Notes under the pieces: model-generated
The model's database searches: none
Told to the model about the DNA's origin: nothing
Seen by the model: only the letters and a program-made list of their open reading frames with translations
Made by a program: the position numbers and the translations under genes
Part shown: in pieces, positions 3,476-50,952 of the stretch
Layout: every line of letters begins with the position of its first letter
Numbering within the stretch: the stretch's first letter is position 1
Sequence record: ON568341.1
Direction: 5' to 3' (one strand)
Source of the DNA: Escherichia phage UE-S1
DNA length: 64,000 bases

Positions 3476-3497
3476 AGACCCGTTATGGGTCTTTTTG
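3475..3497 (+). terminator. rho-independent terminator candidate
   Basis: Hairpin AGACCCGTTATGGGTCT followed by T-rich run directly after the stop codon. Confidence 0.55.
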
Positions 3498-3551
3498 TGT
3501 TTATGGCTTTACAAGAGCATTCAGGTGTGTTATACTTGATTTCAAATAGAG

Positions 3552-6775: not shown

Positions 6776-6781
6776 ATTTAT

Positions 6782-6806
6782 ACCAGGGGTTGACTCTGGT
6801 ATTTTT
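6782..6806 (+). terminator. rho-independent terminator candidate
   Basis: Hairpin ACCAGGGGTTGACTCTGGT followed by TTTTT. Confidence 0.45.
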
Positions 6807-6836
6807 GTATGATACATTATCCTAAAGGAGAATTTT

Positions 6837-15698: not shown

Positions 15699-16220
15699 AT
15701 GTCGAAGAAGGATACTTCGAATAAACATTCAGTACATTTCAGTACTGGAAAAGATAACTGGACAACCCCAAAAGATTTTTTTGAAGATTTAGATGAGTTA
15801 TGGGGATTTACACTTGATGCTGCTTGTGTAGATGAGACTGCATTGTGTGATAATTTTTTCACTCCAGAAGATGATTCACTGTCACAGGATTGGGGAAATA
15901 ATATAGTTTGGTTGAATCCACCATATAGTGACTTAAAAACATGGTTATCTAAAGCTGTAGATGCATATAATAACGGAGCAACTGTAGTTATTCTTGTACC
16001 CTCAAGAACCGATACAATTGCTTTTCAGGATTATGCTGCTAAAATATGTGATTGTATTTGTTTTATTAAGGGAAGATTGCGATTTGGTATACCAGAAGAA
16101 CCCGATAAGAAAACTGATTCAGCACCATTTCCTTCGTGTCTGATAGTTCTGGATAAGTACTTAACCACTGCTAAAATCAATTGTCTTAAATCTCTCGGAT
16201 TGGTGATGAAGAATTTATGA
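15699..16220 (+). CDS. DNA N6-adenine methyltransferase, phage Dam-like
   Basis: NPPY motif (VWLNPPYS) and N-terminal FTLDAACVD region, as recalled for the phage N6-adenine MTase family. Confidence 0.7.
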   Translation: MSKKDTSNKHSVHFSTGKDNWTTPKDFFEDLDELWGFTLDAACVDETALCDNFFTPEDDSLSQDWGNNIVWLNPPYSDLKTWLSKAVDAYNNGATVVILVPSRTDTIAFQDYAAKICDCICFIKGRLRFGIPEEPDKKTDSAPFPSCLIVLDKYLTTAKINCLKSLGLVMKNL

Positions 16221-16750
16221 AAGAAACATGTATATTATCATTTATGAGATGTAACCCAGTCCACAATGGACATGGTTTAGTTTTTGAAAAGGCCAAAACA
16301 TTACAAGAACAGTACAATGCTGATTTAAAAATTTATCTAAGCACTAGTACTGACAATATAAAAAACCCACTACCACCTGAACTAAAAATGTATTATACAG
16401 AGGGATTCTATCCTTCAGTGCAAGAGAACATCTACACAGAGGACAATCTATTTGATATAATGAGAGAACTGGATGGAAAGTACTTAGATGTTCTCTTCAT
16501 ATGTGGTTCTGACCGTATTGATTCTTTTCAGAAAACCCTTGACACTTACAATGGGAAGTTGTATAATTTTTGTAATATAAAAGTAATTCAAGCAGGTATT
16601 GACCGCCAATCAAGTCGATATAGCTCAACACAAATGCGTAAGTTTGCCAAAAATGAAGATTTTGATAGTTTTCGTGAGTTTTTGCCTGGAAATGACGAGA
16701 ACTTAAAAATTCAATTATTTGAAGATGTTATAAAATACATGAGGAAATAA
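16217..16750 (+). CDS. cytidylyltransferase-fold nucleotidyltransferase, NMNAT-like
   Basis: HxGH motif (NPVHNGH) near N-terminus and SSTQMRK (ISSTxxR-like) near C-terminus; ATGA overlap with upstream. Confidence 0.6.
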   Translation: MKETCILSFMRCNPVHNGHGLVFEKAKTLQEQYNADLKIYLSTSTDNIKNPLPPELKMYYTEGFYPSVQENIYTEDNLFDIMRELDGKYLDVLFICGSDRIDSFQKTLDTYNGKLYNFCNIKVIQAGIDRQSSRYSSTQMRKFAKNEDFDSFREFLPGNDENLKIQLFEDVIKYMRK

Positions 16751-23242: not shown

Positions 23243-23506
23243 ATGAATATTCAAGATAGATTACAATTACTGTACACACTTGAACAGGCTGCTTATGATC
23301 TTGTTCGAAAAATCTCAGATGAACTACCTAAAGGAACTAAAGTTCGTGTACGTGAGATGAATTATTTTTCTGGAGTAATTGAAGAACAAGTACTAACAGT
23401 GAATAAAGTAACATACTATGAATCTGAGTTGTCTATTCAGTGTGAATCTGATGATGGATTAATATCATATTATGGAACTGATGTAGATATAGAGGTAATA
23501 AAATGA
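23243..23506 (+). CDS. family-2 small paralog
   Basis: Track ORF 23198..23506; ATG at 23243 just after upstream stop; LPKGTKVRV pattern. Confidence 0.55.
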   Translation: MNIQDRLQLLYTLEQAAYDLVRKISDELPKGTKVRVREMNYFSGVIEEQVLTVNKVTYYESELSIQCESDDGLISYYGTDVDIEVIK

Positions 23507-24645
23507 CCCTTTTGCAAATATATGAAGATTTAATGCACTTATGTAATACAAACGATGCATTCTTTTATGTGGATCATAAAAGTCCTGCTGGTGGCACGTA
23601 TCGTGTATTCAGTTATCGCCTAGCATCATACAATGATTTCATGCAACCAAATGCACTAGAAACCCGTGGCTCTATGTGGGAAATTGATGAAGAAGGTAAT
23701 ATGATTCGTTGTGCTGCTCGTACTATGAAAAAGTTCTTCAATGCTTACGAGAATCCTGCTACAATGTTCCCTGCTAACACCACATGCGATGACATTGCGG
23801 TAGTGATGCCTAAATTAGATGGTTCAGTGATCAGTACTTACCGTGATAATGATGGTGAGATTCGTTGTAAATCACATACTGCATTGTATTCTGACCATGC
23901 GATTAACAGTACTCGACTTATTAACGAAAACCAGAATTTGTATCAGTACATCGACGAAGCTGAACGTTTAGGTTACACAGTTAATATGGAGTATACAAGC
24001 CCAGAGTACCGAATTGTATTACCATATCAGGTAGAACAACTGTTTGTATTGAACGTTCGTCATCGTGTGAGTGGTGAGTTGCTATGTGGTAAAGCACTAC
24101 GTGATAAGTTTCCATGTCTTGCACAGTACAGCACTAACATGACAGGCCAAGATATTCATCACACTTTTCCTGTACGAAATACATTCCGTGAAAGTGTTGA
24201 TGAAGTTCATAAAATGCTTGATATTGAGGGGTTTGTGTGCATCTTAAATAATGGGACAATGTGTAAAATAAAGACTGACTGGTACAGTTCATTACATCTT
24301 ACAAAAGATAGTATTATTATTGATTCTCATTTATATGAAGCTGTATTAAATGGTTCAAGTGATGATTTAAAACAATTGTTCAGTACTGATGAATATGCTA
24401 TGCAAAAGATATTAAGAATGGAACAGTTGGTTTTTTCGTGCTATAATGCATTACAAGATGAAGTAGAAAGCTTCGTCAATGAACACAAGCACTTAGAGCG
24501 AAAGGAATTCGCATTGAAGGTTCAGTCGTGTTTATCTAGTGAACTGAATCGTCAGGGCTTGGCATTTGCAATGTATAATAATAAGAAAGTTGATTATAAA
24601 GATACTCTTATCAAATACATGAAAATTATACTAAAAGATTTTTAG
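23503..24645 (+). CDS. rnlA: RNA ligase 1 (T4 RnlA-like)
   Basis: 380 aa; N-terminal region and KLDG adenylation motif align by eye with recalled T4 Rnl1 (FFY.D..S..G.TYR.FSY..ASY.D...P.ALE.RG.MF). Confidence 0.85.
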   Translation: MTLLQIYEDLMHLCNTNDAFFYVDHKSPAGGTYRVFSYRLASYNDFMQPNALETRGSMWEIDEEGNMIRCAARTMKKFFNAYENPATMFPANTTCDDIAVVMPKLDGSVISTYRDNDGEIRCKSHTALYSDHAINSTRLINENQNLYQYIDEAERLGYTVNMEYTSPEYRIVLPYQVEQLFVLNVRHRVSGELLCGKALRDKFPCLAQYSTNMTGQDIHHTFPVRNTFRESVDEVHKMLDIEGFVCILNNGTMCKIKTDWYSSLHLTKDSIIIDSHLYEAVLNGSSDDLKQLFSTDEYAMQKILRMEQLVFSCYNALQDEVESFVNEHKHLERKEFALKVQSCLSSELNRQGLAFAMYNNKKVDYKDTLIKYMKIILKDF

Positions 24646-25741: not shown

Positions 25742-26674
25742 ATGCCAACTATCACCTTAACAATTGGGTTGCCTGGGTGTGGTAAAACTACATGGGCAGT
25801 GCAAGAGATTAAAAACGCCAAATCTAAGACTATCAACATCAACCGTGATGATATTCGTGAATCTATGGCGGGGTCACATGATGCTTACAAATTCAACGAT
25901 GCTAATGAGCAGTACGTAACTACTTTACAGTTCAGTGCAGCAAATTTAGCAGCAGAGAATGGTTGGAACATCATCATATCCGATACGAACCTTAAACAAC
26001 ATTTCCGTGATCTCTGGAAAGTATGGGCTAAAGATAATGATTATGATTACAAAGAAAAGAACTTCTATGATGATTTTGTACCTAATGAAGACCGTGGTGC
26101 AGATGTTCATGAATTCTTTAAGATTAAAGAGTTCGTAAAACTTTGTAAGAAATATAACCGCCAGCGTGAGCGTTCAGTACAAGATAATATCATTGATACG
26201 ATGGCAGATACTTACTATTATAGTAAAGCAATGCACATTGGTTACTATGGTAATTCAAGAGAAGCCTCTGTTATCGTTGATATCGACGGAACTCTTGCTC
26301 ATAAATGGGGTCGTAATCCTTACGATGAAAGTACTGTACTACAAGATACACCAGATGAAGAAGTTATTTTGTCTATTATCGCTGAAGCAGTTTTCCATAA
26401 ACGTAAGATTATTGTAATGAGTGGGCGTACTGAAGGGTGTCGTGCAGACACAGAACAGTGGCTTAAGAATTGGGGTGTTCCTTACGATGCATTGTTTATG
26501 CGAGGCATCGATGATAAACGACCCGATGATGTGGTAAAATATGAGTTGTATATGAATAACGTCGTGCATCATTACGATGTTAAAAAAGTATACGATGACA
26601 GATCACAAGTCGTATTCATGTGGCGTAAACTACTTGGATTAAAAGTGATGCAAGTTGCAGAAGGAAATTTCTGA
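25742..26674 (+). CDS. pseT: polynucleotide 5'-kinase / 3'-phosphatase (T4 PseT-like)
   Basis: 310 aa; N-terminal P-loop ITLTIGLPGCGKTTWA; HAD phosphatase motif VDIDGTLA; C-terminal DDR.QVV.MWR as in recalled T4 Pnk. Confidence 0.9.
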   Translation: MPTITLTIGLPGCGKTTWAVQEIKNAKSKTININRDDIRESMAGSHDAYKFNDANEQYVTTLQFSAANLAAENGWNIIISDTNLKQHFRDLWKVWAKDNDYDYKEKNFYDDFVPNEDRGADVHEFFKIKEFVKLCKKYNRQRERSVQDNIIDTMADTYYYSKAMHIGYYGNSREASVIVDIDGTLAHKWGRNPYDESTVLQDTPDEEVILSIIAEAVFHKRKIIVMSGRTEGCRADTEQWLKNWGVPYDALFMRGIDDKRPDDVVKYELYMNNVVHHYDVKKVYDDRSQVVFMWRKLLGLKVMQVAEGNF

Positions 26675-34424: not shown

Positions 34425-35495
34425 ATGTATACTATTGATGATGAAATAATTAATAATAAATTTATTTCTGATACATACAATGCATATGATATATCTAAAA
34501 TAATTCTCAAGGAAAAGTATCCTCAATTTGATTGGGATACTATTGACCTTGAGAATTTAAAAACTGATGATTATTGTAAAAATGACATTATTGGATATAT
34601 ACAAGATAAAAAAAATATAAAATTGTATGGCATTAAATGTGAAAAATGCTCCCAAAATTACAAACTAAATGGTCTAGGGATATATTTTTCATATAAAGGA
34701 AATTTAGTTAAGGGTAAGTGTCCATGTAATTGTAGTAAGCATAAATTCTACACAAAATATCAAAATATTTTTTTGATTAATGAAAAAGCAAAAACGTTAA
34801 ATTATATTTTTTGTGGTTTTGTTGATGAGTATAAAGGTAAAAATAAAACAAAAATAAAATTATATTGTCCAAATAACAAACATGGTATATGGGATACAAC
34901 ATTAATATATAGTTTTATAGAATCAAACAATGGATGTATTAAATGTGCACATGAATCAGTCGGGTTAAGTAATAGTATAACTTTCGCAGATCATATAAAA
35001 GATTTTTTATCAACTGGTAAGTATAATAAAAATACAAAATTTTGGAAATCTAATAAGATTGACAGTAGAGGATATAATAATTATTGGTTTTGCCAATGTC
35101 CAATATGTAAAACTACAGTTGAGGCATCTACTACAAATCTTAAAAGTGGGAAAGTATCATGTTTATGTAACGGGAACACCCAGCAACAGGGATATATAAA
35201 TTTAGTACTTGACAATGATATACCAATTGCATTAAAATATGGAATAACATCTAATACAGAAGTCAGAGAAAAAACACAAAATCGCAATTCAATCTATGAT
35301 ATTGTAAACTGTGGTGTCTGGGAGTTTGAATCTTCTTTGTTATGTAAATCAGCAGAAGCGGAATGTAAAAGAACTTTCTCACCAGTACTTGAAGCTCGTG
35401 AAATGAAAGATGGATATACTGAAACTACATCACCATTAGATATTGACAAAATCATTGAAATATATGAAAATTGGGGTGGTGTGCGAATAAAATAA
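34425..35495 (+). CDS. Cys-rich zinc-ribbon protein with possible GIY-YIG-like C-terminal domain
   Basis: 356 aa; repeated CxxC / CxC pairs; C-terminal GYINLV...KYGITSN resembles GIY...YIG spacing. Confidence 0.4.
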   Translation: MYTIDDEIINNKFISDTYNAYDISKIILKEKYPQFDWDTIDLENLKTDDYCKNDIIGYIQDKKNIKLYGIKCEKCSQNYKLNGLGIYFSYKGNLVKGKCPCNCSKHKFYTKYQNIFLINEKAKTLNYIFCGFVDEYKGKNKTKIKLYCPNNKHGIWDTTLIYSFIESNNGCIKCAHESVGLSNSITFADHIKDFLSTGKYNKNTKFWKSNKIDSRGYNNYWFCQCPICKTTVEASTTNLKSGKVSCLCNGNTQQQGYINLVLDNDIPIALKYGITSNTEVREKTQNRNSIYDIVNCGVWEFESSLLCKSAEAECKRTFSPVLEAREMKDGYTETTSPLDIDKIIEIYENWGGVRIK

Positions 35496-40281: not shown

Positions 40282-42183
40282 TTACGCACTGATTGTTACA
40301 GTTGCAGTATCTGTTTTATTACCATCAGCAGTAGCCACTGTAATGACTACAGAACCTTCTTCTAGAGCAGTTACTAATCCCTCATCACTAATAGATACTT
40401 TAGTAGGTTCATCTGCACTATAAGTTACTGATTTGTTAGTTGCGTTAGATGGAAGAACTTCTGGAACTAGTTGAACTGTTTTAGTACCTGATAGTGAAAG
40501 TTCAGTAGTTTTAGGTGTTAAACTAACACTGGATACAGGAACTGGAATATTAACAGTAATAACACCTTGACCTGTTTTACCACTTCCATCAGCAGCAGTT
40601 GCGATAATGTTTGCAGTACCATTAGTTAGTGCAGTTACAATACCAGTACTAGCATCAACTTTTGCTACAGCAGGTTCACTAGAAGACCATGTTACAGATT
40701 TATTAGTTGCGTTAGATGGAAGAACTTCAGCAGCCATTGCTTGAGTTGCTTTAACAGCAGTCAATGTTTTAGTTGCTGGAGTAACATTAATAGATGCTAC
40801 AGGAACTGGAATATTAACAGTTACCACGCAAACTTTAGTAAATCCACCATCAGATGTGGTTGCTGTAATATTTGCAGTACCGTTTGCAACAGCAGTGATT
40901 AACCCAGTTGGACTTACCGTTGCGACACCCTCAGCAGAAGTAGTGTATGAAATATCTTTACGACGAGCGTTATCTGGAATAACAGATGCAGTTAATTGTT
41001 GAGTAGCACCTACCGAAGTTAGGGTTGCGGTCAACGGAGTCATATTAATACCAGTTACTGGGATCGTTACATCAATCACTGATTCAGCAGTTTTAGCACC
41101 ATCATCAGTGGTAACAGTAATAGTTGTAGTACCGTTATCAACCGAAGTTACTAGACCAGTATTACTAACTTTTGCTACGTCTGGATATGAAGAAACATAT
41201 GAAACTGCTTTATTGGATGCAGTTGCAGGAGCAACGGTTGTTTCTAATTGTTTAGTATCACCTAATGTTGAGAATGTATAAGTACTAGGAGTCATAGTGA
41301 CACCAGATACCGGTGTTTTCACAGTGATAGTAGTAGTATCAGTTTTAGCACCATCTTCGGTTGTTGCTGTAATCACCACTGTACCGTTAGCAACACCAGT
41401 TACTAGACCAGAAGTAGGGTTAACGGTTGCTACATCAGGTGTTGCTGAAGACCATGTAACGTTTTTATTAGTTGCATCATCAGGAGATACTGTAGCCGTT
41501 AATTGTTGAGTACCGCCAACGTTAATTGTTGCAGTTTTAGGAGAAACAATAACACCACTAACTGGAGTTGTTACGGTAAATGCACAAACATCGGTGAAAC
41601 CACCATCATGAGTAGTAACTGTTACATTTGCATTACCATTAGCACGGGCAATTGCTAAACCAGTTTCAGCATCAACTTCAACTATTGTTGGAGCAGAGGA
41701 ACTATAACTTACTGTTTTATCATTTGCATAATCTGGATCAATTGTAGCTGATAGCTGTTGTGTACTACCAACTTTAAGTGCTACAACTTTAGGTGAAATA
41801 ATAACACCATCAACTGGAGTAGTATAATCACGTTTAACCACACGACCATTGTTCAATTTAATAATACGACCCATATAAAGAGTAGTATATCCCTTACTAA
41901 TCCCATCATCTACATAAATCATGAATGAATTGTCTTGAACCATATTAATTGCGTCTACTGGTTTAACGGAATTTGGAATGTCGATACCACGGGTATCATA
42001 CCAACACATGGAAACTTTGTAATAGATATCACCATTATCATTTATGAGATCATAAACGTTACTGGAACGTTGACGGTTAATATATAAAGTTTCGGTTAAC
42101 ACCTTACCATCGATTTTAGCGACAGAAACTTTAATACCACCAATACCAAATGGCAATTTACCTTCACTAGATATTGCTTTCAT
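40282..42183 (-). CDS. Ig-like (Big_2) repeat protein, putative virion decoration or adhesin
   Basis: 633 aa on minus strand; about 120 aa N-terminal domain followed by about six tandem repeats (VSPKTATINVGGTQQLTATVSPDDATNK..W.S....VATV); TATAAATA motif upstream. Confidence 0.65.
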   Translation of the reverse strand: MKAISSEGKLPFGIGGIKVSVAKIDGKVLTETLYINRQRSSNVYDLINDNGDIYYKVSMCWYDTRGIDIPNSVKPVDAINMVQDNSFMIYVDDGISKGYTTLYMGRIIKLNNGRVVKRDYTTPVDGVIISPKVVALKVGSTQQLSATIDPDYANDKTVSYSSSAPTIVEVDAETGLAIARANGNANVTVTTHDGGFTDVCAFTVTTPVSGVIVSPKTATINVGGTQQLTATVSPDDATNKNVTWSSATPDVATVNPTSGLVTGVANGTVVITATTEDGAKTDTTTITVKTPVSGVTMTPSTYTFSTLGDTKQLETTVAPATASNKAVSYVSSYPDVAKVSNTGLVTSVDNGTTTITVTTDDGAKTAESVIDVTIPVTGINMTPLTATLTSVGATQQLTASVIPDNARRKDISYTTSAEGVATVSPTGLITAVANGTANITATTSDGGFTKVCVVTVNIPVPVASINVTPATKTLTAVKATQAMAAEVLPSNATNKSVTWSSSEPAVAKVDASTGIVTALTNGTANIIATAADGSGKTGQGVITVNIPVPVSSVSLTPKTTELSLSGTKTVQLVPEVLPSNATNKSVTYSADEPTKVSISDEGLVTALEEGSVVITVATADGNKTDTATVTISA

Positions 42184-42219
42184 ATACTTTCCTTTATAAA
42201 TTGTATTGTATTGTTATAT

Positions 42220-42227
42220 TATTTATA
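42220..42227 (-). promoter_or_regulatory. T4-type late promoter motif TATAAATA (minus strand)
   Basis: Reverse complement reads TATAAATA about 40 nt upstream of the minus-strand ATG at 42183. Confidence 0.45.
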
Positions 42228-42493
42228 TTATAACAAAATTATTTTAGTATTAAAAAAGGAGTTCTAATGCTCCTTTAAAATATAAAGGAACATACTGTGT
42301 AAATCTGGTTTGGTCAGGTTAATCTTTCAGAGAGAAGGAAGTAGTGAATGACATTTTATCATTAAAATCATCTCCTTATCTTTAAAATGGAATTGTAAAC
42401 TGCCTCTTAATATGATACCATAGTTCAAATGGTAAATCAATGAACTTAACAAAAAAAACTTGATACTACAGTCATAATTGTTCAGTTTTGTGC

Positions 42494-42522
42494 TTGACAT
42501 AATTAATCAATTATTGTACTAT
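42494..42522 (+). promoter_or_regulatory. sigma70-like promoter candidate
   Basis: TTGACA, 17-nt spacer, TACTAT; 36 nt upstream of the 42558 start. Confidence 0.45.
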
Positions 42523-42557
42523 TAATAATGTTCCTTAACTCAAATCCGAGGTAATTA

Positions 42558-43163
42558 ATGAAACGATTATTGAAAGAGATTATACAAACCGTTGTTATAA
42601 TTGCTGCATTAAACTTTCCTGCGGCGGCAGAAGTTTCAAAAAAAGCATCTGTTTTTCTATTAAATGATCATGTTGGGTCAATTGATGGTGAACTAAATGA
42701 TAAAACTGTACAAGATGTGGAGCAGTTGTGGAAAGAAAAAAAATTTAAAATTTTAACAATTACATCACCTGGTGGTGATTTTGATGCTGGTATTAAAATG
42801 GGAAATTTTGTTAGAGACAATGGTATAAATTTAATTGTTTCTAGATATTGCAATTCAGCATGTACTGTGGTATTCTTTAGTGTGCCCCCTGAAAAGCGAT
42901 ATATGACAAATCAATCAGTACTGGGATTACATAACATTTCGATCAAAAGTAACGTTAGAGATAGGGATAATACCTTTGTATCTGTTAGACAATTATCAAC
43001 ATTTACTGAAGAAATGGCAACAAAAGTAGGATTTTTATTTACACTATATTCAGCTAATGGAATTCCACCTAGCGTTCTATATAGAGTTAGTCGTGCACGT
43101 GGTGAAGATGTTGTTATCTTAACAAAAAAAGACCTAATTCATTACGGTTCGGTAAATCCATAA
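42558..43163 (+). CDS. secreted ClpP-fold (S14/S49-like) protein with N-terminal signal peptide
   Basis: 201 aa; hydrophobic N-terminus ending AAAE; TSPGGDFDAG resembles ClpP NSPGG box; RYCNSACTV at the Ser-box position. Confidence 0.45.
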   Translation: MKRLLKEIIQTVVIIAALNFPAAAEVSKKASVFLLNDHVGSIDGELNDKTVQDVEQLWKEKKFKILTITSPGGDFDAGIKMGNFVRDNGINLIVSRYCNSACTVVFFSVPPEKRYMTNQSVLGLHNISIKSNVRDRDNTFVSVRQLSTFTEEMATKVGFLFTLYSANGIPPSVLYRVSRARGEDVVILTKKDLIHYGSVNP

Positions 43164-43231
43164 AAATAATTATAATAACAGGATGATTATGTTGTTCTTC
43201 CTTTGTTATTAACTATATCGGAAATATAACT

Positions 43232-43492
43232 ATGACAAACATCCAGAATTTGACGTCTATTATTTTTTATGCTACAGTGGTGATGTATACTATTGTACTT
43301 ATTTTAACAGTTTTTATTTACAAAGATTACAAAAAAGGCTTTATTAATAGCTCAACAATGAAGTTCAATTCTAAATTTGAAGCAATTATATTTTATGTTT
43401 TGACAACATCATATTTGTTGTGTATAATGTTATTAGGGTCATTGATTTATATTTTATATACAACATTATTTGCAATTGGAGCTATTTTATGA
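43232..43492 (+). CDS. small membrane protein
   Basis: 86 aa, three hydrophobic segments. Confidence 0.5.
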   Translation: MTNIQNLTSIIFYATVVMYTIVLILTVFIYKDYKKGFINSSTMKFNSKFEAIIFYVLTTSYLLCIMLLGSLIYILYTTLFAIGAIL

Positions 43493-44085
43493 CATGTATT
43501 ATTGCACACACTGATGGTGTAACTTCATTTATTGCAGGGGACAAGATGGGGAGTGATGGTTTTACGAAATCAATCCAAACAGAGCCTAAAGTGTTTGAGA
43601 AAGAATTTGTAAAGATTAGTGGTGATGACGGCTTGACTCGTACAAAAGATGTTATGACAATTGGATTCACTACATCATTTCGTATGGGTCAACTGCTAAC
43701 TTATAATTTAAATTTACCAGACCAAAATTCAAATGAGACGTTTCTACAGTATTTAGTACTGAAAGTTATTCCTATTATTCGTCAAATGTTTAAAGACGAA
43801 TGGGGTGCACGTGATACAACACAAGATGTTGGTGGTGGTCAATTTATTATTTTGCACAATCATAAGATTTATGAAATTCAGGAAGATTTTTCAGTTCTCC
43901 AGGCAAAATCAAGAGTTGCATCAGTTGGTAGTGGTACATATCATGCAATTGCAGCGATGCAAGCATACATTGATCTTGAGAAAGAAACTAACGTACAACT
44001 ACATGAACGTATCAAATCCATTTTCAAAATTGTCAGTGATAATGTGTCGAGTGTAAGCGAAGAGTTTGATGTATTAAAATATTAA
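43489..44085 (+). CDS. HslV-like Ntn-hydrolase peptidase (proteasome beta-type)
   Basis: Track ORF 43420; ATG at 43489 overlaps upstream stop; N-terminus MTCIIAHTDGVTSFIAGDKMGSDG matches HslV MTTIVSV..G...IAGDGQ; SVGSGTYHAIAA matches GSGG.YALAAA. Confidence 0.6.
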   Translation: MTCIIAHTDGVTSFIAGDKMGSDGFTKSIQTEPKVFEKEFVKISGDDGLTRTKDVMTIGFTTSFRMGQLLTYNLNLPDQNSNETFLQYLVLKVIPIIRQMFKDEWGARDTTQDVGGGQFIILHNHKIYEIQEDFSVLQAKSRVASVGSGTYHAIAAMQAYIDLEKETNVQLHERIKSIFKIVSDNVSSVSEEFDVLKY

Positions 44086-44100
44086 AATTATAAGAGAGAA

Positions 44101-44295
44101 ATGATGGCATACACAATTTATGAATGGATTTTGAGTTTTATTATAGTATTTTTTATGGTTGTAATTTACAATAATGCTACATGCTTATATAGAGATTTAA
44201 AATCCAATGGTTATCATGCAAACAATAATTTAATGTATGCCTATCATATTGGAATCATTCTATTATTATCAATATATTTAATTGGTTTTATATAA
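44101..44295 (+). CDS. small membrane protein
   Basis: 64 aa, two hydrophobic segments. Confidence 0.5.
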   Translation: MMAYTIYEWILSFIIVFFMVVIYNNATCLYRDLKSNGYHANNNLMYAYHIGIILLLSIYLIGFI

Positions 44296-44304
44296 GGATT
44301 GCGT

Positions 44305-45057
44305 ATGATATCAGAAAAATTTATAAGTAATGAAGGAAACAAGAGATTACTTATCATCTCAGGAGCAGGTCTTTCCGTTGAAAGTGGGATGGAGCCATTT
44401 CGATTTGATGATGGCTTATGGGATACATTTAAAATTAATGACGTATGTAATATTGCAAATTTAGATACAAAATATCATGTTGTTCATTCGTTTTATAACA
44501 CACTGCGTGTTAAACTGGGTCAATGTGAACCAAATGCAATGCATTATTTTATCAAATCCTTAGAGGATCAATATGGTGATTGTTTCCTTCATATGACCTC
44601 CAACATGGATGATCTTTATACACGTATTGGTGGTAAAGAACTCAAACTTCATGGTAATTTGTGTGAAGTGATAGAAAATTATAGTATTAATGGTGATGAT
44701 TATAACATTGTTAACTGTGGTTATGAGCCATATATACCAAAACATGATGTTTTTGCTAAACCAAATGTAGTGATGATTGGTGAATATCACCGTTACGTTG
44801 ATGGTGTTCGTTTGCCAATATACGAAGAAAGAAATAATGTTTTAAAAACACTTACCGAAAACGATACTGTGATTGTTATTGGAAGTAGCGATACAGTGCT
44901 TGTGTGGTCCAGATTAGCTGCGGCATTGCCCTGTTATAGCGTTAATGTTAACATTCGCAAAAATGATAATGATTTTCTGTTCAATGAAAAAATTATCAAA
45001 CCAGCTACCAAAGCAATACATCAATTAGAGACTATAATTAAGGAACGTATGAAATGA
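44305..45057 (+). CDS. Sir2-family NAD-dependent deacylase / ADP-ribosyltransferase
   Basis: Track ORF 44299 (TTG); ATG at 44305; ISGAGLSVESGMEPFR (GAGIS..SGIP.FR), TSNMDDL (TQNID.L), KLHGNL, VIGSS motifs. Confidence 0.75.
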   Translation: MISEKFISNEGNKRLLIISGAGLSVESGMEPFRFDDGLWDTFKINDVCNIANLDTKYHVVHSFYNTLRVKLGQCEPNAMHYFIKSLEDQYGDCFLHMTSNMDDLYTRIGGKELKLHGNLCEVIENYSINGDDYNIVNCGYEPYIPKHDVFAKPNVVMIGEYHRYVDGVRLPIYEERNNVLKTLTENDTVIVIGSSDTVLVWSRLAAALPCYSVNVNIRKNDNDFLFNEKIIKPATKAIHQLETIIKERMK

Positions 45058-45605
45058 GTGTTAAAGAAGTTCCTTTTGGTGAATATGGTTCACGTGCCAA
45101 TTTTGTATTTTGCTATTTCTTTGCAAGAAAATGTAACCCTTACGAAAATTACGAATTGAATGATATACCAGAAGTAAATTTAGTATTACTCCAATTACGA
45201 TGGGATGGCCTTCTAGGGGGATGTGGTGGGACAGTTGAAAGTACTGATATCTCACTAGAAGATGCGTTACGTCGTGAAATTCAAGAAGAGATGGATTACA
45301 ATATTTTTGTTTCCCATCTTCGACCACTTAAAACTTTTGAAATTTATCCAGGTGCAAACAGTCATAGTTTTAGCTATGAAGTAACCTATGATGAGTTGAA
45401 ACACATTAGAGATGGATACACTAATGCTAAACATGCGAGTGCTGAAGTGGCTGGTGTAAATTTATGTCATATTTCTCGTTATTCTAAGGGACAAAATCGA
45501 GAAGCGGGATATAATAATCTTATGACTCAGAACTTCATTGGTACAGCAAAACAAGAATTGGAGTATCTGGTTCAAAAAGAAAACTTACTAATTAGTTATC
45601 TATAG
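45054..45605 (+). CDS. Nudix hydrolase
   Basis: 183 aa; ATGA overlap with Sir2 gene; Nudix box GGCGGTVESTDISLEDALRREIQEEMDY. Confidence 0.7.
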   Translation: MSVKEVPFGEYGSRANFVFCYFFARKCNPYENYELNDIPEVNLVLLQLRWDGLLGGCGGTVESTDISLEDALRREIQEEMDYNIFVSHLRPLKTFEIYPGANSHSFSYEVTYDELKHIRDGYTNAKHASAEVAGVNLCHISRYSKGQNREAGYNNLMTQNFIGTAKQELEYLVQKENLLISYL

Positions 45606-45614
45606 GAGTTTAAC

Positions 45615-45935
45615 ATGTCTTACTCAATGTTTTTGGATGATATCCGTGATGCAAATCTATATTATCCAAACCAAGATATGGTGGTATGTCGTGACTTTAA
45701 AAGTGCATGTGAATATGTTATTGAAAATGGAATTCCAGCATTTGTATCATTTGACCATGACTTGGGTGATGTGAGCGAAGACGAAAAGACTGGATATTCT
45801 TTTGCTAAGTTTCTTATTGATTATATGTTTGATAATAATATTAAAGAACCGTTTGAGTACTTTGTTCACAGTAGTAATCCTGTTGGTAAAATTAATATTG
45901 AAACATACTTAAACAATGGGTTTAACGCATTATGA
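45615..45935 (+). CDS. hypothetical protein
   Basis: 106 aa; FLDD.R ... VSFDHDLGD pattern, function unknown. Confidence 0.55.
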   Translation: MSYSMFLDDIRDANLYYPNQDMVVCRDFKSACEYVIENGIPAFVSFDHDLGDVSEDEKTGYSFAKFLIDYMFDNNIKEPFEYFVHSSNPVGKINIETYLNNGFNAL

Positions 45936-46234
45936 TTCAAACACACATCAAAAGTCTTATTTGTACTATTCTGTTGGGCACGGGAGTGTTTTTGTTCGGA
46001 CAATATCACGAGAATACTAAGCGTACCAACATTCACTACAATACCGCAGAAGTTGTTAGTTTAGGGCAATGTAGTGAGTCAAAATGTTCGTTTATGTACA
46101 AAACCAGCAATGGTGAAGTACGTAATGGACTATCAAGAGAACCAGTTTCAATTGGTCAACTTGTTTACCAGGAGTGCTGGGAAGAAAAGGTTCGAGGTTC
46201 CCGTTGCTATGTTGAATACGAACCAAATATGTAA
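45932..46234 (+). CDS. hypothetical protein with N-terminal hydrophobic segment
   Basis: 100 aa; ATGA overlap. Confidence 0.5.
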   Translation: MIQTHIKSLICTILLGTGVFLFGQYHENTKRTNIHYNTAEVVSLGQCSESKCSFMYKTSNGEVRNGLSREPVSIGQLVYQECWEEKVRGSRCYVEYEPNM

Positions 46235-46294: not shown

Positions 46295-47734
46295 ATGAAA
46301 AAATATACAATTGACACAAACGTACTTCTATCTGACCCTAATGCATCTATTGCGTTTGATGGTGCTGCAATCATTCTACCATTTACTGTTCTAGAAGAAT
46401 TGGATTCAATTAAGAGTCGTAGTGTGGATGTTTCACGAGATGCTCGCGTTGCTATTCGTAACATTGAAGCAATTATTGCAAATGCATCTCATGATGAAAT
46501 TAGTAGTTCTGGTGTTAATATTGCTGATGTTCATACCAATATGAATCCTGACAGCAAATTGTTTGTTATTACAAACGAAGAAGCTGAAGCACTAATTCGT
46601 ACTAAAGGTTCAAACGACAAAGTTCAAACCCTTCTCAAAAGCACTGTACCTGATGATAAAATTATTCTGGTAGCTTTAGCAACCGAATCAGTACTGGTAA
46701 CTCGTGATATCAACATGCGTATCAAAGCACTAAGTTATGGTGTCGAGGTACAAGACTATCGTCATGATATTGTTATTGGTGATAGTGATTTGATTCACAT
46801 TGGTCAACATCATATGGAAATTAATTTTTGGGATGTATATAGCAATTTAACAAATACAAATATTAAAACTGAACAAATCGGTCGTCGATTGTATCATTAC
46901 ATCCCTAAAAGCTTGATTGAGCATTTGCTTCCACAAAATCTATGTATTGGTGATTATCTATATGATGATGCTGATGTATTATTTGTATACGAAGGTCAAT
47001 CAGCCATTGAGGAAGATGATGGTACACTAACACCAGAAGATATTTTGGTATTCCAAGATATTGGTCAATCAGTAGCGTTGCGTACTAAAGTATGGGATAT
47101 TAAAGCAAAGAATATTCAGCAAGCACTTGCCATCAACAGTATTCTCGATCCTGATGTACATCTAACAGTACTACTAGGTTCGGCTGGAACTGGCAAAACA
47201 TTAGTGACGATTGCTACTGCACTAGAGTTAGTACTGGAAAAACGCAAATATGACCGTGTTGTGTTCTCAAAACCACAAGATTCACAATGGGCTGAAATTG
47301 GTTTCTTACCAGGTTCCGAAATGGAAAAAATGCTACCACATTGTGGCCCTGCACTGGATGCATTAGAATTTTTACACAAAGATGATGCCTCACCACAAGG
47401 TAGTATCGAAGAGATTCTTAAACGTAACGTGATGCAATTTAAAGCACTAAACTTTGTGCGTGGACGCTCATTCACTAATACGATTCTTGTAGTTGATGAA
47501 TTCCAAAACATTACACCTGCACAAGCAAAAACTATCTTGACACGAGCAGGATTAAACTGTAAAGTAGTGATTATGGGAAACTTAGCACAGATTGATAGCA
47601 AATTTATCAGTCCAGTAAACAGTGGTTTGACATATGTAACTGAAAAATTCAAAGATTGGAGTGGTTGCCGTATCATTGAATTAGAAGGTGTTGTTCGTTC
47701 ACCACTTGCTGAATTTGCTGAAGAAAATATGTAA
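46295..47734 (+). CDS. phoH: PIN-domain / PhoH-like ATPase
   Basis: 479 aa; N-terminal PIN-like region (IDTNVLL...LEELD); P-loop GSAGTGKT; Walker B VVDEFQN. Confidence 0.85.
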   Translation: MKKYTIDTNVLLSDPNASIAFDGAAIILPFTVLEELDSIKSRSVDVSRDARVAIRNIEAIIANASHDEISSSGVNIADVHTNMNPDSKLFVITNEEAEALIRTKGSNDKVQTLLKSTVPDDKIILVALATESVLVTRDINMRIKALSYGVEVQDYRHDIVIGDSDLIHIGQHHMEINFWDVYSNLTNTNIKTEQIGRRLYHYIPKSLIEHLLPQNLCIGDYLYDDADVLFVYEGQSAIEEDDGTLTPEDILVFQDIGQSVALRTKVWDIKAKNIQQALAINSILDPDVHLTVLLGSAGTGKTLVTIATALELVLEKRKYDRVVFSKPQDSQWAEIGFLPGSEMEKMLPHCGPALDALEFLHKDDASPQGSIEEILKRNVMQFKALNFVRGRSFTNTILVVDEFQNITPAQAKTILTRAGLNCKVVIMGNLAQIDSKFISPVNSGLTYVTEKFKDWSGCRIIELEGVVRSPLAEFAEENM

Positions 47735-48084: not shown

Positions 48085-48112
48085 TCAGTTTTTTATCCCT
48101 GTCAATTGGCAG
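48085..48112 (+). terminator. rho-independent terminator
   Basis: ATCCCTG-TCAATTGG-CAGGGAT hairpin followed by TTTTTT. Confidence 0.6.
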
Positions 48113-48217
48113 GGATTTTTTCTATCTCTATCTTGACAAAAGGTTTAAAACATGAGAACATACATTAAAGGTAGAATGACATTCCATTAGGTTATTTTTA
48201 ACTTAAAGGAGATATAT

Positions 48218-48775
48218 ATGTTTTTTGACCAAACATTTACGTTGTATCACGATTCTGGTAAAGTTGAGATTATTGATAATCTGCTACTGTACATTTCTGA
48301 GCATGAAGGGATAGACCGTTTTCATAGTAAGATGAAATTCGATTTAGCTGAATTCAACAAAAAGAATCGTGAAACTTTTTGGAAGAACCGATTCTATTAT
48401 GAAATGTTCCCAGAAAGGTTTGTTGGTTATTATCTTTGTACTGAGAAAGGTTTATTAGTATCTCCAGATTTACTTATGGGTGAATACATGGTTCTCTATA
48501 ATGAGTACTGGAAAAATAAACGCAACGCTCGTGACATTGAATGGAGACACAAGCGTTCTTATATGTACAAACACAACCACTCCCGATACAAACGTCCTAA
48601 AACTCAACAAGAGCGTCGTATGGCGTGTGCGGTACTGAAGGATGAGGGAGAACCTGATATACGTGGAAGACGTAAGATGCGTTCACTACCATCGTATTGG
48701 GACGATACCAGAACAAGACACAGTACTGGCTGGAAATACAGTACTAAGCGTAAAAAACAATACAAAGGGAGCTAA
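48218..48775 (+). CDS. hypothetical protein with basic C-terminus
   Basis: 185 aa; GGAG RBS. Confidence 0.55.
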   Translation: MFFDQTFTLYHDSGKVEIIDNLLLYISEHEGIDRFHSKMKFDLAEFNKKNRETFWKNRFYYEMFPERFVGYYLCTEKGLLVSPDLLMGEYMVLYNEYWKNKRNARDIEWRHKRSYMYKHNHSRYKRPKTQQERRMACAVLKDEGEPDIRGRRKMRSLPSYWDDTRTRHSTGWKYSTKRKKQYKGS

Positions 48776-48802: not shown

Positions 48803-49972
48803 ATGAGCAAAATTAATGTTGATGTAGTTATTGGTTATATTGAAATTGAACCGTGTAGTATTGATACAATGATTGACACTCTTAATAAGTATCGTTTAGA
48901 GTACAGGGGACATATTAGTATTTCGCCCGACGGTGGTTACGGTGGATTCCATGGATACAATGTAATTTGGACCAGAGAAGAAACTGACGAAGAATATAAT
49001 ACACGAATTGAAGCTGAATCTAAAAGACGTGAAGAAATTGATCGTCAAGAAATGAAACACTTAATGAACAAGAAAATCATTAAGTTCCGAAGAGAAAGAA
49101 AAACTTCTAACATACATCAAGGATTACATGTAATGAAAAATGTAACTCAAGAAAAGATTCTGTACCTTGCAAAGTACAATGGTGGTTTCAATATCATTAG
49201 CCGTGAGTATCGTGGTAATTTGGCTAAGTTGATTGACAGCTTGTTAGAATTCGATTTCATTAAATGGGAAACTAATGAACTTTGGTATGAATATGCTGGT
49301 CAGAAATGGGAAAGTGATTATGATAATGCAACACATACCTATACTATCACCAAAGCAGGTGAAGTTCGTCTATTGATTTATCGTCTAGCATATGCTTATA
49401 AGAATCATAAAGATACTGATAAGCACCAACGTAGGATTGATGAATTACAGCAAGCACTTCAACAATATGATTTAGATATTAATAATTTCAAAGATTGTTG
49501 TTCTAAGAATGAACTTAAAGCAATTAATGATTTCAATAGTAAGACCACAAATGTTGAATTAACTGATTCTGTTGACTTAGAACTTTCACCATACAATACC
49601 AATCCTACTTGGGGAAGAACTCTTACTAATATCAATGATATTGATTTCAGCCAACCAGCACTGAATAATATGTTCCAAATGAGTTCAATGCTGGGTGCTA
49701 AAGGTTTTGATGCGTCAAGAACTGATGATTATGTTCTTCGTAAAATAAATGAAGAACTTGGTGAAATGACACTTGAAATGAACATCCGTGATGGGTTATC
49801 ATATAAAGAAGCAGGTAAAGATGGTGTCAAAGGTGAAGCTGTAGATCTTTGCATTTGTGCACTTGACATGTTCGCTTTGCAATGCGATAATATGAGTCCA
49901 GAAGAGATGGAACGTGAGTTCCTTACTTACATGAATGTTAAACTAGCCAAATGGCGTAAATCAATTCAATAG
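48803..49972 (+). CDS. protein with C-terminal MazG-like NTP pyrophosphohydrolase domain
   Basis: 389 aa; C-terminal EELGEMTLE ... EAVDLCICALDM resembles MazG EE.GE...E..DLL motifs. Confidence 0.5.
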   Translation: MSKINVDVVIGYIEIEPCSIDTMIDTLNKYRLEYRGHISISPDGGYGGFHGYNVIWTREETDEEYNTRIEAESKRREEIDRQEMKHLMNKKIIKFRRERKTSNIHQGLHVMKNVTQEKILYLAKYNGGFNIISREYRGNLAKLIDSLLEFDFIKWETNELWYEYAGQKWESDYDNATHTYTITKAGEVRLLIYRLAYAYKNHKDTDKHQRRIDELQQALQQYDLDINNFKDCCSKNELKAINDFNSKTTNVELTDSVDLELSPYNTNPTWGRTLTNINDIDFSQPALNNMFQMSSMLGAKGFDASRTDDYVLRKINEELGEMTLEMNIRDGLSYKEAGKDGVKGEAVDLCICALDMFALQCDNMSPEEMEREFLTYMNVKLAKWRKSIQ

Positions 49973-49980
49973 GTTTTTTA

Positions 49981-50952
49981 ATGAAAACTAAAATTATTTC
50001 TGAACAAAAAATCGGCAATACTACAGTACTGAATATTGAAGTTCAAGATCTTAGTAATGTTCGTTCTCTTACTGTTTGTACTCAGAGAGATGATTTGACT
50101 GATTTTTATAACTCCGAATACATGTCAGAAGAACATTGGGATATGGGATGGTTAGACGGTAGTAGTTATATCAGTTCTCGTTATAGTTTTGGTTCTCATG
50201 AAAATATTGAACAAGTAAAAAATGAGTATATTAAACTCAGTGATACTATTGAAATGAAAGAAGAAGATTGTGTAGAACTTTTCATTTTTGAATTCGATGC
50301 AGGAAATGGTAATTCATTACTAGTAAGTAATATTGAAGAACATTTAATGTATCATGATATTGAAGATGTAGATTTTAAAAGTATTAAAAATGTTGTTCAT
50401 ATGGTTGGTGGTAGTATTACTGATGATTCAGATATCGGTCATAATATTTCACTGTGCTTAATTTCTCATCCAAAAACTCGTGGTTTTAAAGTTCCACAAG
50501 ATGAAACTTACGTGTTTGAAACTGCTGATGAAGGAATTTATCCTTGGAATGATTATGTAGAATACTATGGTCATTTCTGTTCTGATATAAAAGAACTGAA
50601 AAAAGGCGAACGATATTTTGATATGTTCCGTGCAGCACAGCGTTTAGTACTGAATAATACTGAACTATTTCCTGATCGCGGTGAAGAAAATATGATTGAT
50701 ATTATCTTCAAGAACTATGATTATGTGCAGAACATTCCTGATAATGTACATTTGGAATATGTTCACGGTTCTTCAAACAAATTCTATAATATTGAATTGA
50801 ATGTTTCAGTGTGTGAAGTAATCATTGAGTACGGTGCTATTGGTAAAACCAGTACTACCGATGGTGAAGAATTCGAAACTATTGAAGAAGCACGTAAGTT
50901 CTTCGAGAAGAAAGTAATTTCCAAAATTAAAAGTGGTTATATCCCAAAATGA
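49981..50952 (+). CDS. protein with C-terminal WGR-like domain
   Basis: 323 aa; C-terminus NKFYNIEL...EYGAIGK...EEFETIEEARKFFEKKVISKIKSGY resembles WGR domain. Confidence 0.45.
   Translation: MKTKIISEQKIGNTTVLNIEVQDLSNVRSLTVCTQRDDLTDFYNSEYMSEEHWDMGWLDGSSYISSRYSFGSHENIEQVKNEYIKLSDTIEMKEEDCVELFIFEFDAGNGNSLLVSNIEEHLMYHDIEDVDFKSIKNVVHMVGGSITDDSDIGHNISLCLISHPKTRGFKVPQDETYVFETADEGIYPWNDYVEYYGHFCSDIKELKKGERYFDMFRAAQRLVLNNTELFPDRGEENMIDIIFKNYDYVQNIPDNVHLEYVHGSSNKFYNIELNVSVCEVIIEYGAIGKTSTTDGEEFETIEEARKFFEKKVISKIKSGYIPK

Follow-up and report, generated by a model that had tools for sequence, protein, structure and literature searches.

A conserved five-gene block headed by a zinc-less sirtuin and a NUDT16-like Nudix hydrolase in a jumbo coliphage, and its possible part in NAD-dependent RNA repair

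Do the overlapping Sir2 and Nudix genes of Escherichia phage UE-S1 serve one pathway, and on which molecule would that pathway act? The question arises from a 64,000-nucleotide stretch of this genome (ON568341.1; hereafter, the window), which is DNA of a 121Q/PBECO4-like (Asteriusvirus) jumbo coliphage. A preliminary description of the stretch had proposed that the two genes are translationally coupled and form an NAD/ADP-ribose module, possibly relevant to NAD-based host defences.

The gene pair and its enzyme families

Both open reading frames were found on the plus strand, the Sir2 gene at 44305..45057 (250 aa), with AAGGA ahead of its ATG, and the Nudix gene at 45054..45605 (183 aa), with an ATG that overlaps the Sir2 stop as ATGA. 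The overlap behind the proposed translational coupling therefore exists, but in itself it is nothing special, since this 4-nt type was found at 17 of the 107 same-strand gene junctions of the window. It was seen only in the 121Q-like lineage, the relatives having gaps of 2-12 nt or an intervening 123-aa ORF, and the orthologues in deposited relatives carry the labels “Sir2” and “nudix hydrolase.” A candidate sigma-70 promoter (43400..43428, plus strand; 12/12 consensus) lies upstream of an HslV-like gene and the block described below. Two perfect sigma-70 matches were observed in the window against 0.04 expected; conservation of the one at 43400 does not extend to 121Q, so the operon boundaries are candidates. 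The first terminator-like hairpin 3' of the block (48095..48116, plus strand) has a 9-bp stem with 5 GC pairs and a T-run, and matches the consensus. BLASTP between the ORFs at the window's left end did not reveal a family of paralogues.

The Sir2 motifs quoted in the preliminary description were all present (GAGLSVESGMEPFR at residues 20-33, TSNMDDL at 98-104 and LHGNL at 115-119), and the protein matched Pfam SIR2 (PF02146, E = 7e-20) and PHROG 2162 (E = 2.5e-78). The second protein matched Pfam Nudt16-like (PF22327) with E = 1e-18 and 68.3 bits against a cutoff of 27, the NUDIX family above its cutoff (E = 1e-6) and PHROG 9999 (E = 5e-90). As sequence assignments, both are far above chance.

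Homology and structure searches placed the first protein, a zinc-less class III/CobB-like sirtuin, with CobB and SIRT5. The best solved relative was E. coli CobB (E ~1e-21), with 30% identity overall and ~45% in the N-terminal half. The AF2 model (pLDDT 88) retrieved CobB, Sir2Af1 and SIRT5 as top Foldseek matches (TM 0.77-0.85), with all of the top 50 being deacylase sirtuins. The Sir2 claim had been made to depend on the catalytic residues, and the alignment of 27 homologues revealed invariant G20, G22, S27, G28, N100, D102, H116, G117, G159 and E160, among which N100, D102 and H116 align with the catalytic Asn, Asp and His (H147) of CobB. The NAD-binding loop GAGxSxxSG was conserved, and an FR pair was present, varying in 2 of 12 aligned homologues. 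A search for cellular orthologues in 185,579 species genomes returned only CobB-like proteins with ≤40% identity and offered no useful gene context from cells. Deposited genomes label the phage gene cobB or deacylase.

Across the 27 homologues, representing the whole phage clade, there was no conserved Cys at or near the positions of the four-Cys zinc module (CobB C155/C174/C176/C177), and C120 and C138 of the phage sirtuin are not constant among relatives. The FGE-equivalent motif is followed by an inserted 11-residue hairpin; this insertion and the loss of the zinc ribbon together suggest a remodelled substrate cleft. The class III YxxR pair is incomplete, with the Tyr kept (Y64 = CobB Y92), CobB R95 replaced by L67, and R68 next along. 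The hydrophobic positions of the acyl-lysine pocket are mostly retained (Y64, M101, V155 and IGE), and the pI is acidic (5.6 in the window, 4.6 in phage BF). Judging from sequence and modelled fold, the sirtuin resembles protein deacylases and not defence NADases.

The Nudix protein proved to be NUDT16-like: its top PDB sequence matches, at E ~3e-12, were human NUDT16 and Xenopus X29, aligned along almost all of the domain. Its Nudix box is spaced as in NUDT16, and the residues G58, G59, V61, E62, R74, E75, E78 and E79 were invariant in 13 sequences. Residues R50, E76, E79/E80 and E136 of NUDT16 correspond to R49, E75, E78/E79 and E131, again invariant, and the equivalents of I164 and S166 are also kept. 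At the position of the base-reading Gln170 there is an invariant Glu, and the substrate-mouth residues F57 and F61 are replaced by Gly and Thr. The HMMER alignment leaves out the N-terminus, the region of the purine-stacking His24 of NUDT16.

A conserved five-gene block and its neighbours

The Sir2-Nudix pair opens a five-gene module that is conserved in giant phages of enterobacteria. The order Sir2, NUDT16-like Nudix, cREC, small membrane protein and PIN-PhoH was found in 15/15 full-length Rak2-like jumbo loci, with the membrane protein at the same position in every one of them and PIN-PhoH always fifth. In the window, all three further genes are on the plus strand. The cyclic-phosphate-processing receiver-like (cREC) protein, of a family defined in PMC7824862, is encoded at 45615..45935 (106 aa; Pfam cREC_REC, PF20274, E = 1.5e-22). 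The membrane protein gene follows at 45932..46234 (100 aa; PHROG 14661 “membrane protein,” E = 1.2e-42), with an ATGA overlap with cREC, and the PhoH2-type PIN + PhoH protein is encoded at 46295..47734 (479 aa; Pfam PIN_4 E = 4e-20, PhoH E = 1.6e-42). Virions of phAPEC6, a close relative, have been found to contain a 53-kDa PhoH-like protein (PMC7247149).

The adjacency of Sir2 and Nudix and the block order persisted down to 42% Sir2 identity, with the upstream genes varying. Nudix and cREC, separate genes in the window, form one fused ORF in 9 related jumbo-phage loci. In viral contigs the Nudix subfamily was found only adjoining this sirtuin (14/14 loci), while the sirtuin clade also occurs at loci without Nudix, a distribution that fits a product-clearing accessory. 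The persistent adjacency, this strict co-occurrence and the invariant catalytic residues support the functional linkage claimed for the NAD/ADP-ribose pair, but the unit comprises five genes rather than two. Since every jumbo locus comes from a single phage clade, some of the shared gene order may reflect inheritance and not selection. The V5-like phages are an independent lineage with a sirtuin ~34% identical, and there the order was Rnl1, cREC, a kinase without phosphatase domain, a small ORF and Sir2 (loci L022-L024; L020 has these genes too).

For cREC, residues D8, D9, R11, F46, D47, H48, D49, N88 and G91 were invariant across 58 homologues. Its AF2 model (pLDDT 96.8) had response-regulator receivers as nearest solved folds, weakly, and no histidine-kinase partner was present in the block neighbourhood. 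The surroundings of cREC in three unrelated contigs gave no useful hint; a bacterial copy adjoins a metallophosphoesterase.

Upstream of the block, NadM (NMNAT-Nudix) and NadV (NAMPT) were found within 6 kb in 15/16 jumbo loci, and an Acb1-family 2H gene (PF23474, E = 3.6e-15) just before Sir2 in 14/16. The link to NadM and NadV is absent from what Iyer et al. (2022) describe in the section dealing with this neighbourhood. None of the three genes was found within the window: tblastn with the Acb1-family 2H protein of phage BF returned nothing in the window or in 59 kb of 121Q, and no Asteriusvirus was among the best 60 NadV matches. We examined the gene at 48218-48775 as a candidate for the missing 2H gene and rejected it, as its very basic protein has no HxT/S pair.

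The preliminary description had also pointed to an NMNAT-like gene at 16217-16750. Its HxGH and SSTxxR motifs are present and PHROGs labels it “cytidyltransferase,” but the protein had no Pfam match, and NCBIfam nadD scored only E = 0.0034 over 16 residues. It is not orthologous to the NadM of related phages (BLASTP against phage BF NadM, E = 0.043, motif only), and the gene lies 28 kb from the Sir2-Nudix pair. We have rejected it as part of the module, the similarity seen in Pfam, NCBIfam, PDB sequence and BLASTP searches being at the level of the HxGH motif. As for the suggested relevance to defence, an NAD/counter-defence setting is reasonable for the wider clade, given that in most relatives the block lies directly downstream of NadM, NadV and the Acb1-family 2H gene. 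The window lacks all three and has a deacylase-like sirtuin.

Possible reactions and substrates of the block

We tentatively propose, at a confidence short of even, that the sirtuin, Nudix and cREC proteins act in NAD-dependent removal of RNA 2'-phosphate, followed by disposal of the product. Gene order, gene fusion and conservation of catalytic residues were seen directly; what each enzyme does chemically, and on which substrate, we infer. The sirtuin would be an active NAD+ consumer, moving ADP-ribose onto an oxygen nucleophile with release of nicotinamide. The resulting ADP-ribose-containing product would be dismantled by Nudix, through pyrophosphate cleavage yielding AMP, and by cREC, which may open or remove a phosphate or cyclic phosphate. 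An RNA 2'-phosphate, remaining after end-healing of nuclease-cut RNA, would be the likeliest substrate. In a Tpt1/KptA role, the sirtuin would convert it to 2'-OH RNA and ADP-ribose 1''-2'' cyclic phosphate, the latter being degraded by cREC and Nudix. That the zinc-less phage sirtuin would be the first nucleic-acid-acting sirtuin, a Tpt1/KptA analogue, with the NUDT16-like Nudix and cREC dedicated to ADP-ribose cyclic phosphate disposal, is a more specific claim that we regard as doubtful.

In favour of NAD-dependent RNA repair we have counted the invariant sirtuin N100/D102/H116 with the NAD loop, the Nudix metal and phosphate ligands, the acidic site of cREC, the five-gene order, the 9 Nudix-cREC fusions, the V5-like Rnl1/cREC/kinase/Sir2 linkage and the remodelled cleft. 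The sirtuin and Tpt1 reactions both open with O-attack on C1'' of NAD, after which the 2''-OH forms a 1'',2''-cyclic species (for Tpt1, PMC8883491). NAD-dependent RNA 2'-phosphate removal was predicted from gene context by Iyer et al. (Viruses 2022, PMC9503650, section 3.7.3), and in that section this sole published prediction for the neighbourhood concerns RNA repair, not defence evasion.

Several observations speak against this reading. The nearest relatives in sequence and fold are protein deacylases, with the acyl-lysine pocket mostly kept, and the acidic pI is unlike that of typical RNA-end enzymes. To our knowledge, no sirtuin acts on RNA, and our literature search found no experiments on phage sirtuins, cREC or phage NUDT16-like Nudix proteins. 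On the plus strand, the window also holds a T4 Rnl1-like RNA ligase (23503..24645; Pfam RNA_lig_T4_1 E = 8.7e-15, T4_Rnl1_C E = 1.2e-16) and a T4 Pnkp-like polynucleotide kinase-phosphatase (25742..26674; Pfam AAA_33 E = 4e-13, HAD_PNKP E = 1.2e-43). The two make up a complete T4-type set, and that pathway should leave no 2'-phosphate. We take both enzymes as context; should the RNA-repair reading hold, the ligase might be a partner of the block. Finally, the NAD salvage and Acb1-family 2H neighbours in relatives point equally to counter-defence.

That last possibility, in which the block is a counter-defence module in an anti-defence island, we consider rather unlikely. Immune signals derived from ADP-ribose, or the products of NADases, would be destroyed by Nudix and cREC, perhaps with help from the sirtuin, alongside NAD+ reconstitution by NadV and NadM and an Acb1-type cyclic-nucleotide phosphodiesterase. 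The frequent upstream genes of the relatives agree with this, and NadV/NMNAT-type salvage (NARP2) is described in PMC13464706 as countering NAD-depleting immunity. Phage Nudix-cREC fusions have been proposed to degrade cyclic ADPr derivatives (Iyer et al., PMC9503650, section 3.4.5), and the Gly/Thr replacements at NUDT16 F57/F61 would admit bulkier ADPr conjugates. However, the window keeps the block in the absence of NadV, NadM and Acb1, so the block works without them, and a NAD-consuming sirtuin would be an odd partner of NAD-sparing genes. Scanning Sir2, Nudix and cREC with PADLOC gave no meaningful match, nor did the block proteins match anti-defence families.

If the sirtuin were instead a protein lysine deacylase, a phage CobB resetting host or phage protein acylation, Nudix and cREC would clear the by-product, whether O-acyl-ADP-ribose or ADP-ribose, so that AMP and ribose phosphate re-enter the nucleotide pool. 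CobB, Sir2Af1 and SIRT5 being the best sequence and structure matches (TM up to 0.85) agrees with such a role, as do the invariant His required by deacylation chemistry, the conservative counterparts of CobB Y92, I131, V187 and the FGE motif, and the cobB/deacylase labels in deposited genomes. Sirtuins make OAADPr (PMC8883491), and NUDT16 cleaves the pyrophosphate of ADP-ribose (PMC6459841, PMC8883491). We nonetheless judge it unlikely: the zinc module is missing clade-wide, the FGE loop, which binds the peptide, carries the insertion, Leu stands in for the succinyl-binding Arg of CobB (R95), and neither the phosphoesterase-like cREC fused to Nudix nor the recurrent RNA ligase and kinase linkage in V5-like phages is explained. 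A case could also be made for no shared pathway at all, with Nudix either decapping RNA 5' ends or serving as a house-cleaning enzyme for (d)IDP/(d)ITP, and its place beside Sir2 as inherited synteny in one clade. NUDT16 and X29 are RNA decapping enzymes and IDP hydrolases according to their PDB names and PMC4485890, distant Nudt16-like proteins occur as fusions with Ham1/ITPase or HD domains, the RNA-type enzyme PIN-PhoH is among the next genes, and the 4-nt overlap is common in the genome. The strict co-occurrence of the Nudix subfamily with the sirtuin, an adjacency that survives reshuffling of the upstream genes, the fusion of Nudix to cREC and the independent linkage of cREC to this sirtuin clade in V5-like phages make this quite improbable.

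Relation to known systems

The neighbourhood and its genes are already known, being published and annotated in dozens of deposited genomes, and as a discovery the locus is ordinary. What we add is the zinc-less character of the sirtuin clade, the specifically NUDT16-like nature of the Nudix protein, and the NadM/NadV/Acb1-family link in most relatives, lost in the lineage of the window. Should the module act as predicted, it would represent a new reaction class for sirtuins and a first function for cREC, and giant phages now considered for therapy would have an NAD-dependent route to RNA repair or counter-defence.

The phage sirtuin shares the Sir2 superfamily and a predicted NAD+ consumption with ThsA, DSR1/2 and Sir2-HerA. 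It differs from them in having no PADLOC match, deacylases as fold neighbours and no sensor or partner domains, and in being phage-encoded. NARP2 (NadV + NMNAT), immediately upstream of the block in 15/16 related jumbo loci and absent in the window, makes NAD+, which the sirtuin is predicted to consume. NARP3 is unrelated to the Sir2-Nudix pair. T4 Pnkp-Rnl1 tRNA repair, a pathway with no NAD+ requirement, has orthologue-type genes in the window 18-21 kb from the block, and the Rnl1 and kinase genes that flank cREC beside the sirtuin in V5-like phages recall it.

With E. coli CobB, SIRT5 and Sir2Af1 the sirtuin shares the fold, the NAD loop, the catalytic Asn/Asp/His and an FGE-type motif; unlike CobB, it has no zinc Cys, carries the 11-residue insertion after the FGE-equivalent and has Leu in place of R95. 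The Nudix protein is homologous to NUDT16/X29 over nearly the whole domain, with the same Nudix box spacing and the R50/E76/E79/80/E136/I164/S166 equivalents; unlike NUDT16, it is encoded by a phage, has Glu at Q170 and Gly/Thr at F57/F61, and is fused to cREC in relatives. The reaction proposed for the sirtuin is that of Tpt1/KptA, NAD+-dependent RNA 2'-phosphate removal yielding ADP-ribose 1''-2'' cyclic phosphate. The folds are unrelated (ART vs. Rossmann sirtuin), and the matching activity of the sirtuin is a prediction. KptA itself is linked to Nudix, 2H and RNA ligase genes in other viruses, according to Iyer et al. (PMC9503650). Among the closest counterparts is the jumbo-phage sirtuin neighbourhood of section 3.7.3 in the same work (prototype, Serratia phage BF). 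As presented there, it differs from the window by a linked 2H phosphoesterase and by the joining of Nudix and cREC, which are separate in the window, and contains the same sirtuin clade, Nudix, cREC and PIN protein in the same order.

The Sir2-Nudix pair as part of a five-gene block

The Sir2 gene (44305-45057, + strand, 250 aa; Pfam SIR2 E = 7e-20, PHROG 2162) is followed by a Nudix gene (45054-45605, +, 183 aa; Pfam Nudt16-like E = 1e-18, NUDIX 1e-6, PHROG 9999) whose ATG overlaps the Sir2 stop codon as ATGA, in agreement with the preliminary description of the pair (44305-45605). Since the same 4-nt overlap is found at 17/107 same-strand junctions of the window, it is by itself little informative. 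The unit turned out to be larger than the two genes initially proposed, comprising also the genes of a cREC domain protein (45615-45935, +; Pfam PF20274, E = 1.5e-22), of a 100-aa membrane protein overlapping the cREC gene by ATGA (45932-46234, +) and, as the last of five, of a PIN-PhoH protein (46295-47734, +).

The region is ~92% identical at the DNA level to the jumbo phages of the Escherichia 121Q/PBECO4 group (Asteriusvirus), and DNA similarity was recognisable in 69 phage records, including Klebsiella RaK2 and K64-1, Serratia BF, Yersinia fHe-Yen9-04, Cronobacter GAP32 and Pectobacterium CBB. Both genes are annotated in those records as "Sir2 (NAD-dependent deacetylase)" and "nudix hydrolase", the 121Q counterparts being gp476 and gp477. 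The feature is real and conserved, and it is not new, as it is annotated in deposited records and interpreted in the literature (PMC9503650).

We have fetched 25 viral contigs encoding sirtuin relatives and searched their ORFs with the proteins of the window. Contigs above 100 kb were taken as jumbo, giving 15 full-length loci plus L017, a sixteenth locus whose contig ends just after Sir2. The five genes occurred in identical order in 15/15 full-length jumbo loci, down to 42-46% sirtuin identity, and in nine of these Nudix and cREC formed a single ORF of ~300 aa with a short linker. In a pattern search of viral contigs, the Nudix family was found only in these same phages, with the sirtuin alongside in 14/14, and the sirtuin clade occurred without Nudix in some phages of 106-153 kb. 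The ATGA coupling of Sir2 and Nudix is confined to the 121Q lineage, the two genes being elsewhere separated by short gaps or by an extra ORF. The latter, an acidic ORF of 123 aa (6750-7121 of jumbo locus L005; also in L007, L008 and L009, all of one sub-lineage), overlaps the Sir2 stop by ATGA.

The PIN-PhoH counterpart of phAPEC6, a 92%-identical relative, is gp341c, a 53-kDa PhoH-like protein that mass spectrometry revealed in purified virions (PMC7247149), so that PIN-PhoH may be injected together with the DNA; neither Sir2 nor Nudix is named in that virion paper. Downstream of the block, a 185-aa protein (48218-48775, +), very basic in its C-terminal half (pI 9.7), is kept at variable distance in nearly all jumbo loci examined. 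A 389-aa ORF (48803-49972, +) matches at its C-terminus a MazG-like pyrophosphatase PHROG (E = 2.6e-15) and corresponds to two shorter genes in 121Q; MazG-like genes accompany the sirtuin also in V5-like phages. The 323-aa protein at 49981-50952 (+) has a WGR domain at its C-terminus (Pfam E = 1e-10) and no PHROG match; it is present in some close relatives only, and 121Q has no annotation of it at the equivalent position.

Residues conserved in the sirtuin, Nudix and cREC proteins

The closest solved sequence relative of the sirtuin is E. coli CobB (E~1e-21; 30% identity overall, ~45% in the N-terminal half), followed by archaeal Sir2Af and SIRT5. Its AlphaFold model (pLDDT 88) returned the same deacylase sirtuins in Foldseek (TM 0.77-0.85), with no defence-type Sir2 in the top 50, and no PADLOC model matched the protein. 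Close cellular orthologues were not found, the best bacterial matches being CobB-like with ≤40% identity. The sirtuin motifs quoted in the preliminary description are present, and the NAD-binding loop (G20, G22, S27) and catalytic residues (N100, D102, H116) are invariant in 27 homologues. The CobB zinc cysteines have no conserved counterparts among these homologues, and the entire phage clade is thus devoid of the zinc ribbon. The FGE-equivalent motif is immediately followed by an inserted hairpin of 11 residues, the succinyl-binding R95 of CobB is replaced by Leu, and CobB Y92, I131 and V187 have conservative equivalents. The sirtuins are acidic (pI 5.6 in the window, 4.6 in phage BF).

The homology of the Nudix protein to human NUDT16 and Xenopus X29 covers almost the entire domain (E~3e-12). 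Residues were mapped with a HMMER alignment and the published NUDT16-ADP-ribose complex (PMC6459841). The phosphate-binding Arg (NUDT16 R50, here R49) and the metal ligands (E76, E79/80 and E136, here E75, E78/79 and E131) do not vary within the phage family; I164 and S166 are matched like for like, and the Q170 position holds an invariant Glu. F57 and F61, the two Phe that narrow the substrate "mouth" of NUDT16 (PMC6459841), are replaced by Gly and Thr. NUDT16 cleaves the ADP-ribose pyrophosphate on conjugates (PMC8883491), and IDP hydrolysis and RNA decapping, metabolite caps included, are also reported (PMC4485890, PMC7337524). With these several activities, homology alone cannot give the specificity. 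An exhaustive profile search gave 473 cluster representatives, the multi-domain members of which include fusions of Nudix with cREC, Ham1/ITPase, HD and cytidylyltransferase-like domains; the wider family therefore covers both ADP-ribose/NAD and house-cleaning contexts.

The cREC domain was defined in PMC7824862, and a literature search found no experimental paper on it. D8, D9, R11, F46, D47, H48, D49, N88 and G91 are invariant in 58 diverse homologues. The model, of very high confidence (pLDDT 96.8), shows only a weak resemblance to response-regulator receiver domains, and solved structures of close relatives are lacking.

Genomic contexts of the sirtuin clade

The 6 kb upstream of Sir2 hold NadM, an NMN adenylyltransferase-Nudix fusion, and NadV, a nicotinamide phosphoribosyltransferase, in 15/16 jumbo loci, the exception being 121Q. 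A 2H phosphoesterase matching the Pfam Acb1 (anti-CBASS) family (E = 3.6e-15) lies upstream in 14/16, immediately 5' of Sir2 or with only a small zinc-binding protein between. The block thus forms, in most relatives, the distal portion of an NAD+/nucleotide-signal island. This NadM-NadV-2H stretch (1821-5754 of jumbo locus L010, with equivalents in L005-L019) is absent from 42000-44300 of the window; none of the three genes was found in the window or in the 121Q sequence compared, and the best 60 NadV matches included no Asteriusvirus. The place of the three genes is taken by ClpP-like and HslV-like peptidase genes, and only the Sir2-to-PhoH core of the island survives in the window lineage. 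The preliminary interpretation is partly right: "NAD/ADP-ribose module" is a fair description, a theme supported by the clade-wide link to NAD salvage, but the window phage itself has no salvage genes. The NMNAT-like gene proposed as a partner (16217-16750) was rejected, as it lies 28 kb away and shows no family support past its HxGH and SSTxxR motifs.

In V5-like phages (L022-L024), the order is Rnl1-type RNA ligase, cREC, P-loop kinase without phosphatase domain, small ORF and Sir2, followed by an ATP-dependent DNA ligase and, at a greater distance, by a MazG-like gene; L020 holds the same genes. Their sirtuin belongs to the same zinc-less clade (~34% identity). With these loci, a second phage lineage shows cREC and the sirtuin clade linked to enzymes that heal and seal RNA ends. 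In the window, genes of a T4-type Rnl1 (23503-24645) and of a complete Pnkp (25742-26674) lie 18-21 kb upstream of the block, and tRNA genes are absent.

Two perfect 12/12 sigma-70 consensus promoters (TTGACA-17-TATAAT) were found in the window, at 16539-16567 and 43400-43428 (+), for a chance expectation of 0.04; 121Q conserves only the former. A 356-aa ORF (34425-35495, +) with CapR homology domains and a PHROG "endonuclease" match lies between DNA ligase and metallophosphoesterase genes; 121Q has no gene there, and the ORF may be a mobile endonuclease insertion. The 633-aa protein at 40282-42183 (-) carries about seven tandem Ig-like repeats, an array much expanded relative to the "Ig domain" structural gene gp471 (378 bp) found at the equivalent place in 121Q.

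Predicted chemistry and the published neighbourhood

NAD+ consumption by the sirtuin and joint action of Nudix and cREC on an ADP-ribose-containing product are predictions that we consider well supported, on the strength of the gene order, the Nudix-cREC fusion, a co-occurrence that runs one way only and active sites that are intact. It is very unlikely that the functions are unrelated and held together by inherited synteny. As to the acceptor, an RNA 2'-phosphate is a tentative candidate. It best accounts for cREC, for the association with RNA ligase and kinase genes in V5-like phages, for the probably remodelled substrate cleft without zinc and for the chemical similarity of the sirtuin and Tpt1 reactions. 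Against it count the acidic proteins, a full Pnkp, which would be expected to leave no 2'-phosphate, and the deacylase-like pocket. A protein deacylase with clearance of its by-product is unlikely. Counter-defence against ADP-ribose-based immunity, as part of the NAD/Acb1 island, we consider rather doubtful.

An RNA 2'-phosphate acceptor is also what Iyer, Burroughs, Anantharaman and Aravind proposed for the jumbo-phage neighbourhood (prototype Serratia phage BF; PMC9503650, section 3.7.3), composed of sirtuin, 2H, Nudix, cREC and PIN, with Nudix-cREC fused in some. The sirtuin would take off RNA 2'-phosphates in a KptA/Tpt1-like manner, with the remaining enzymes resolving cyclic phosphates or breaking down ADP-ribose cyclic phosphate (PMC9503650). 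The block is biologically interesting and this interpretation is a prediction, for which a literature search found no experimental follow-up. The V5-like arrangement reproduces the second neighbourhood type of the same authors. Their account of the neighbourhood names the 2H gene beside the block and not Acb1, NadV or NadM (PMC9503650), so the NadM/NadV/Acb1 context goes beyond that published description.
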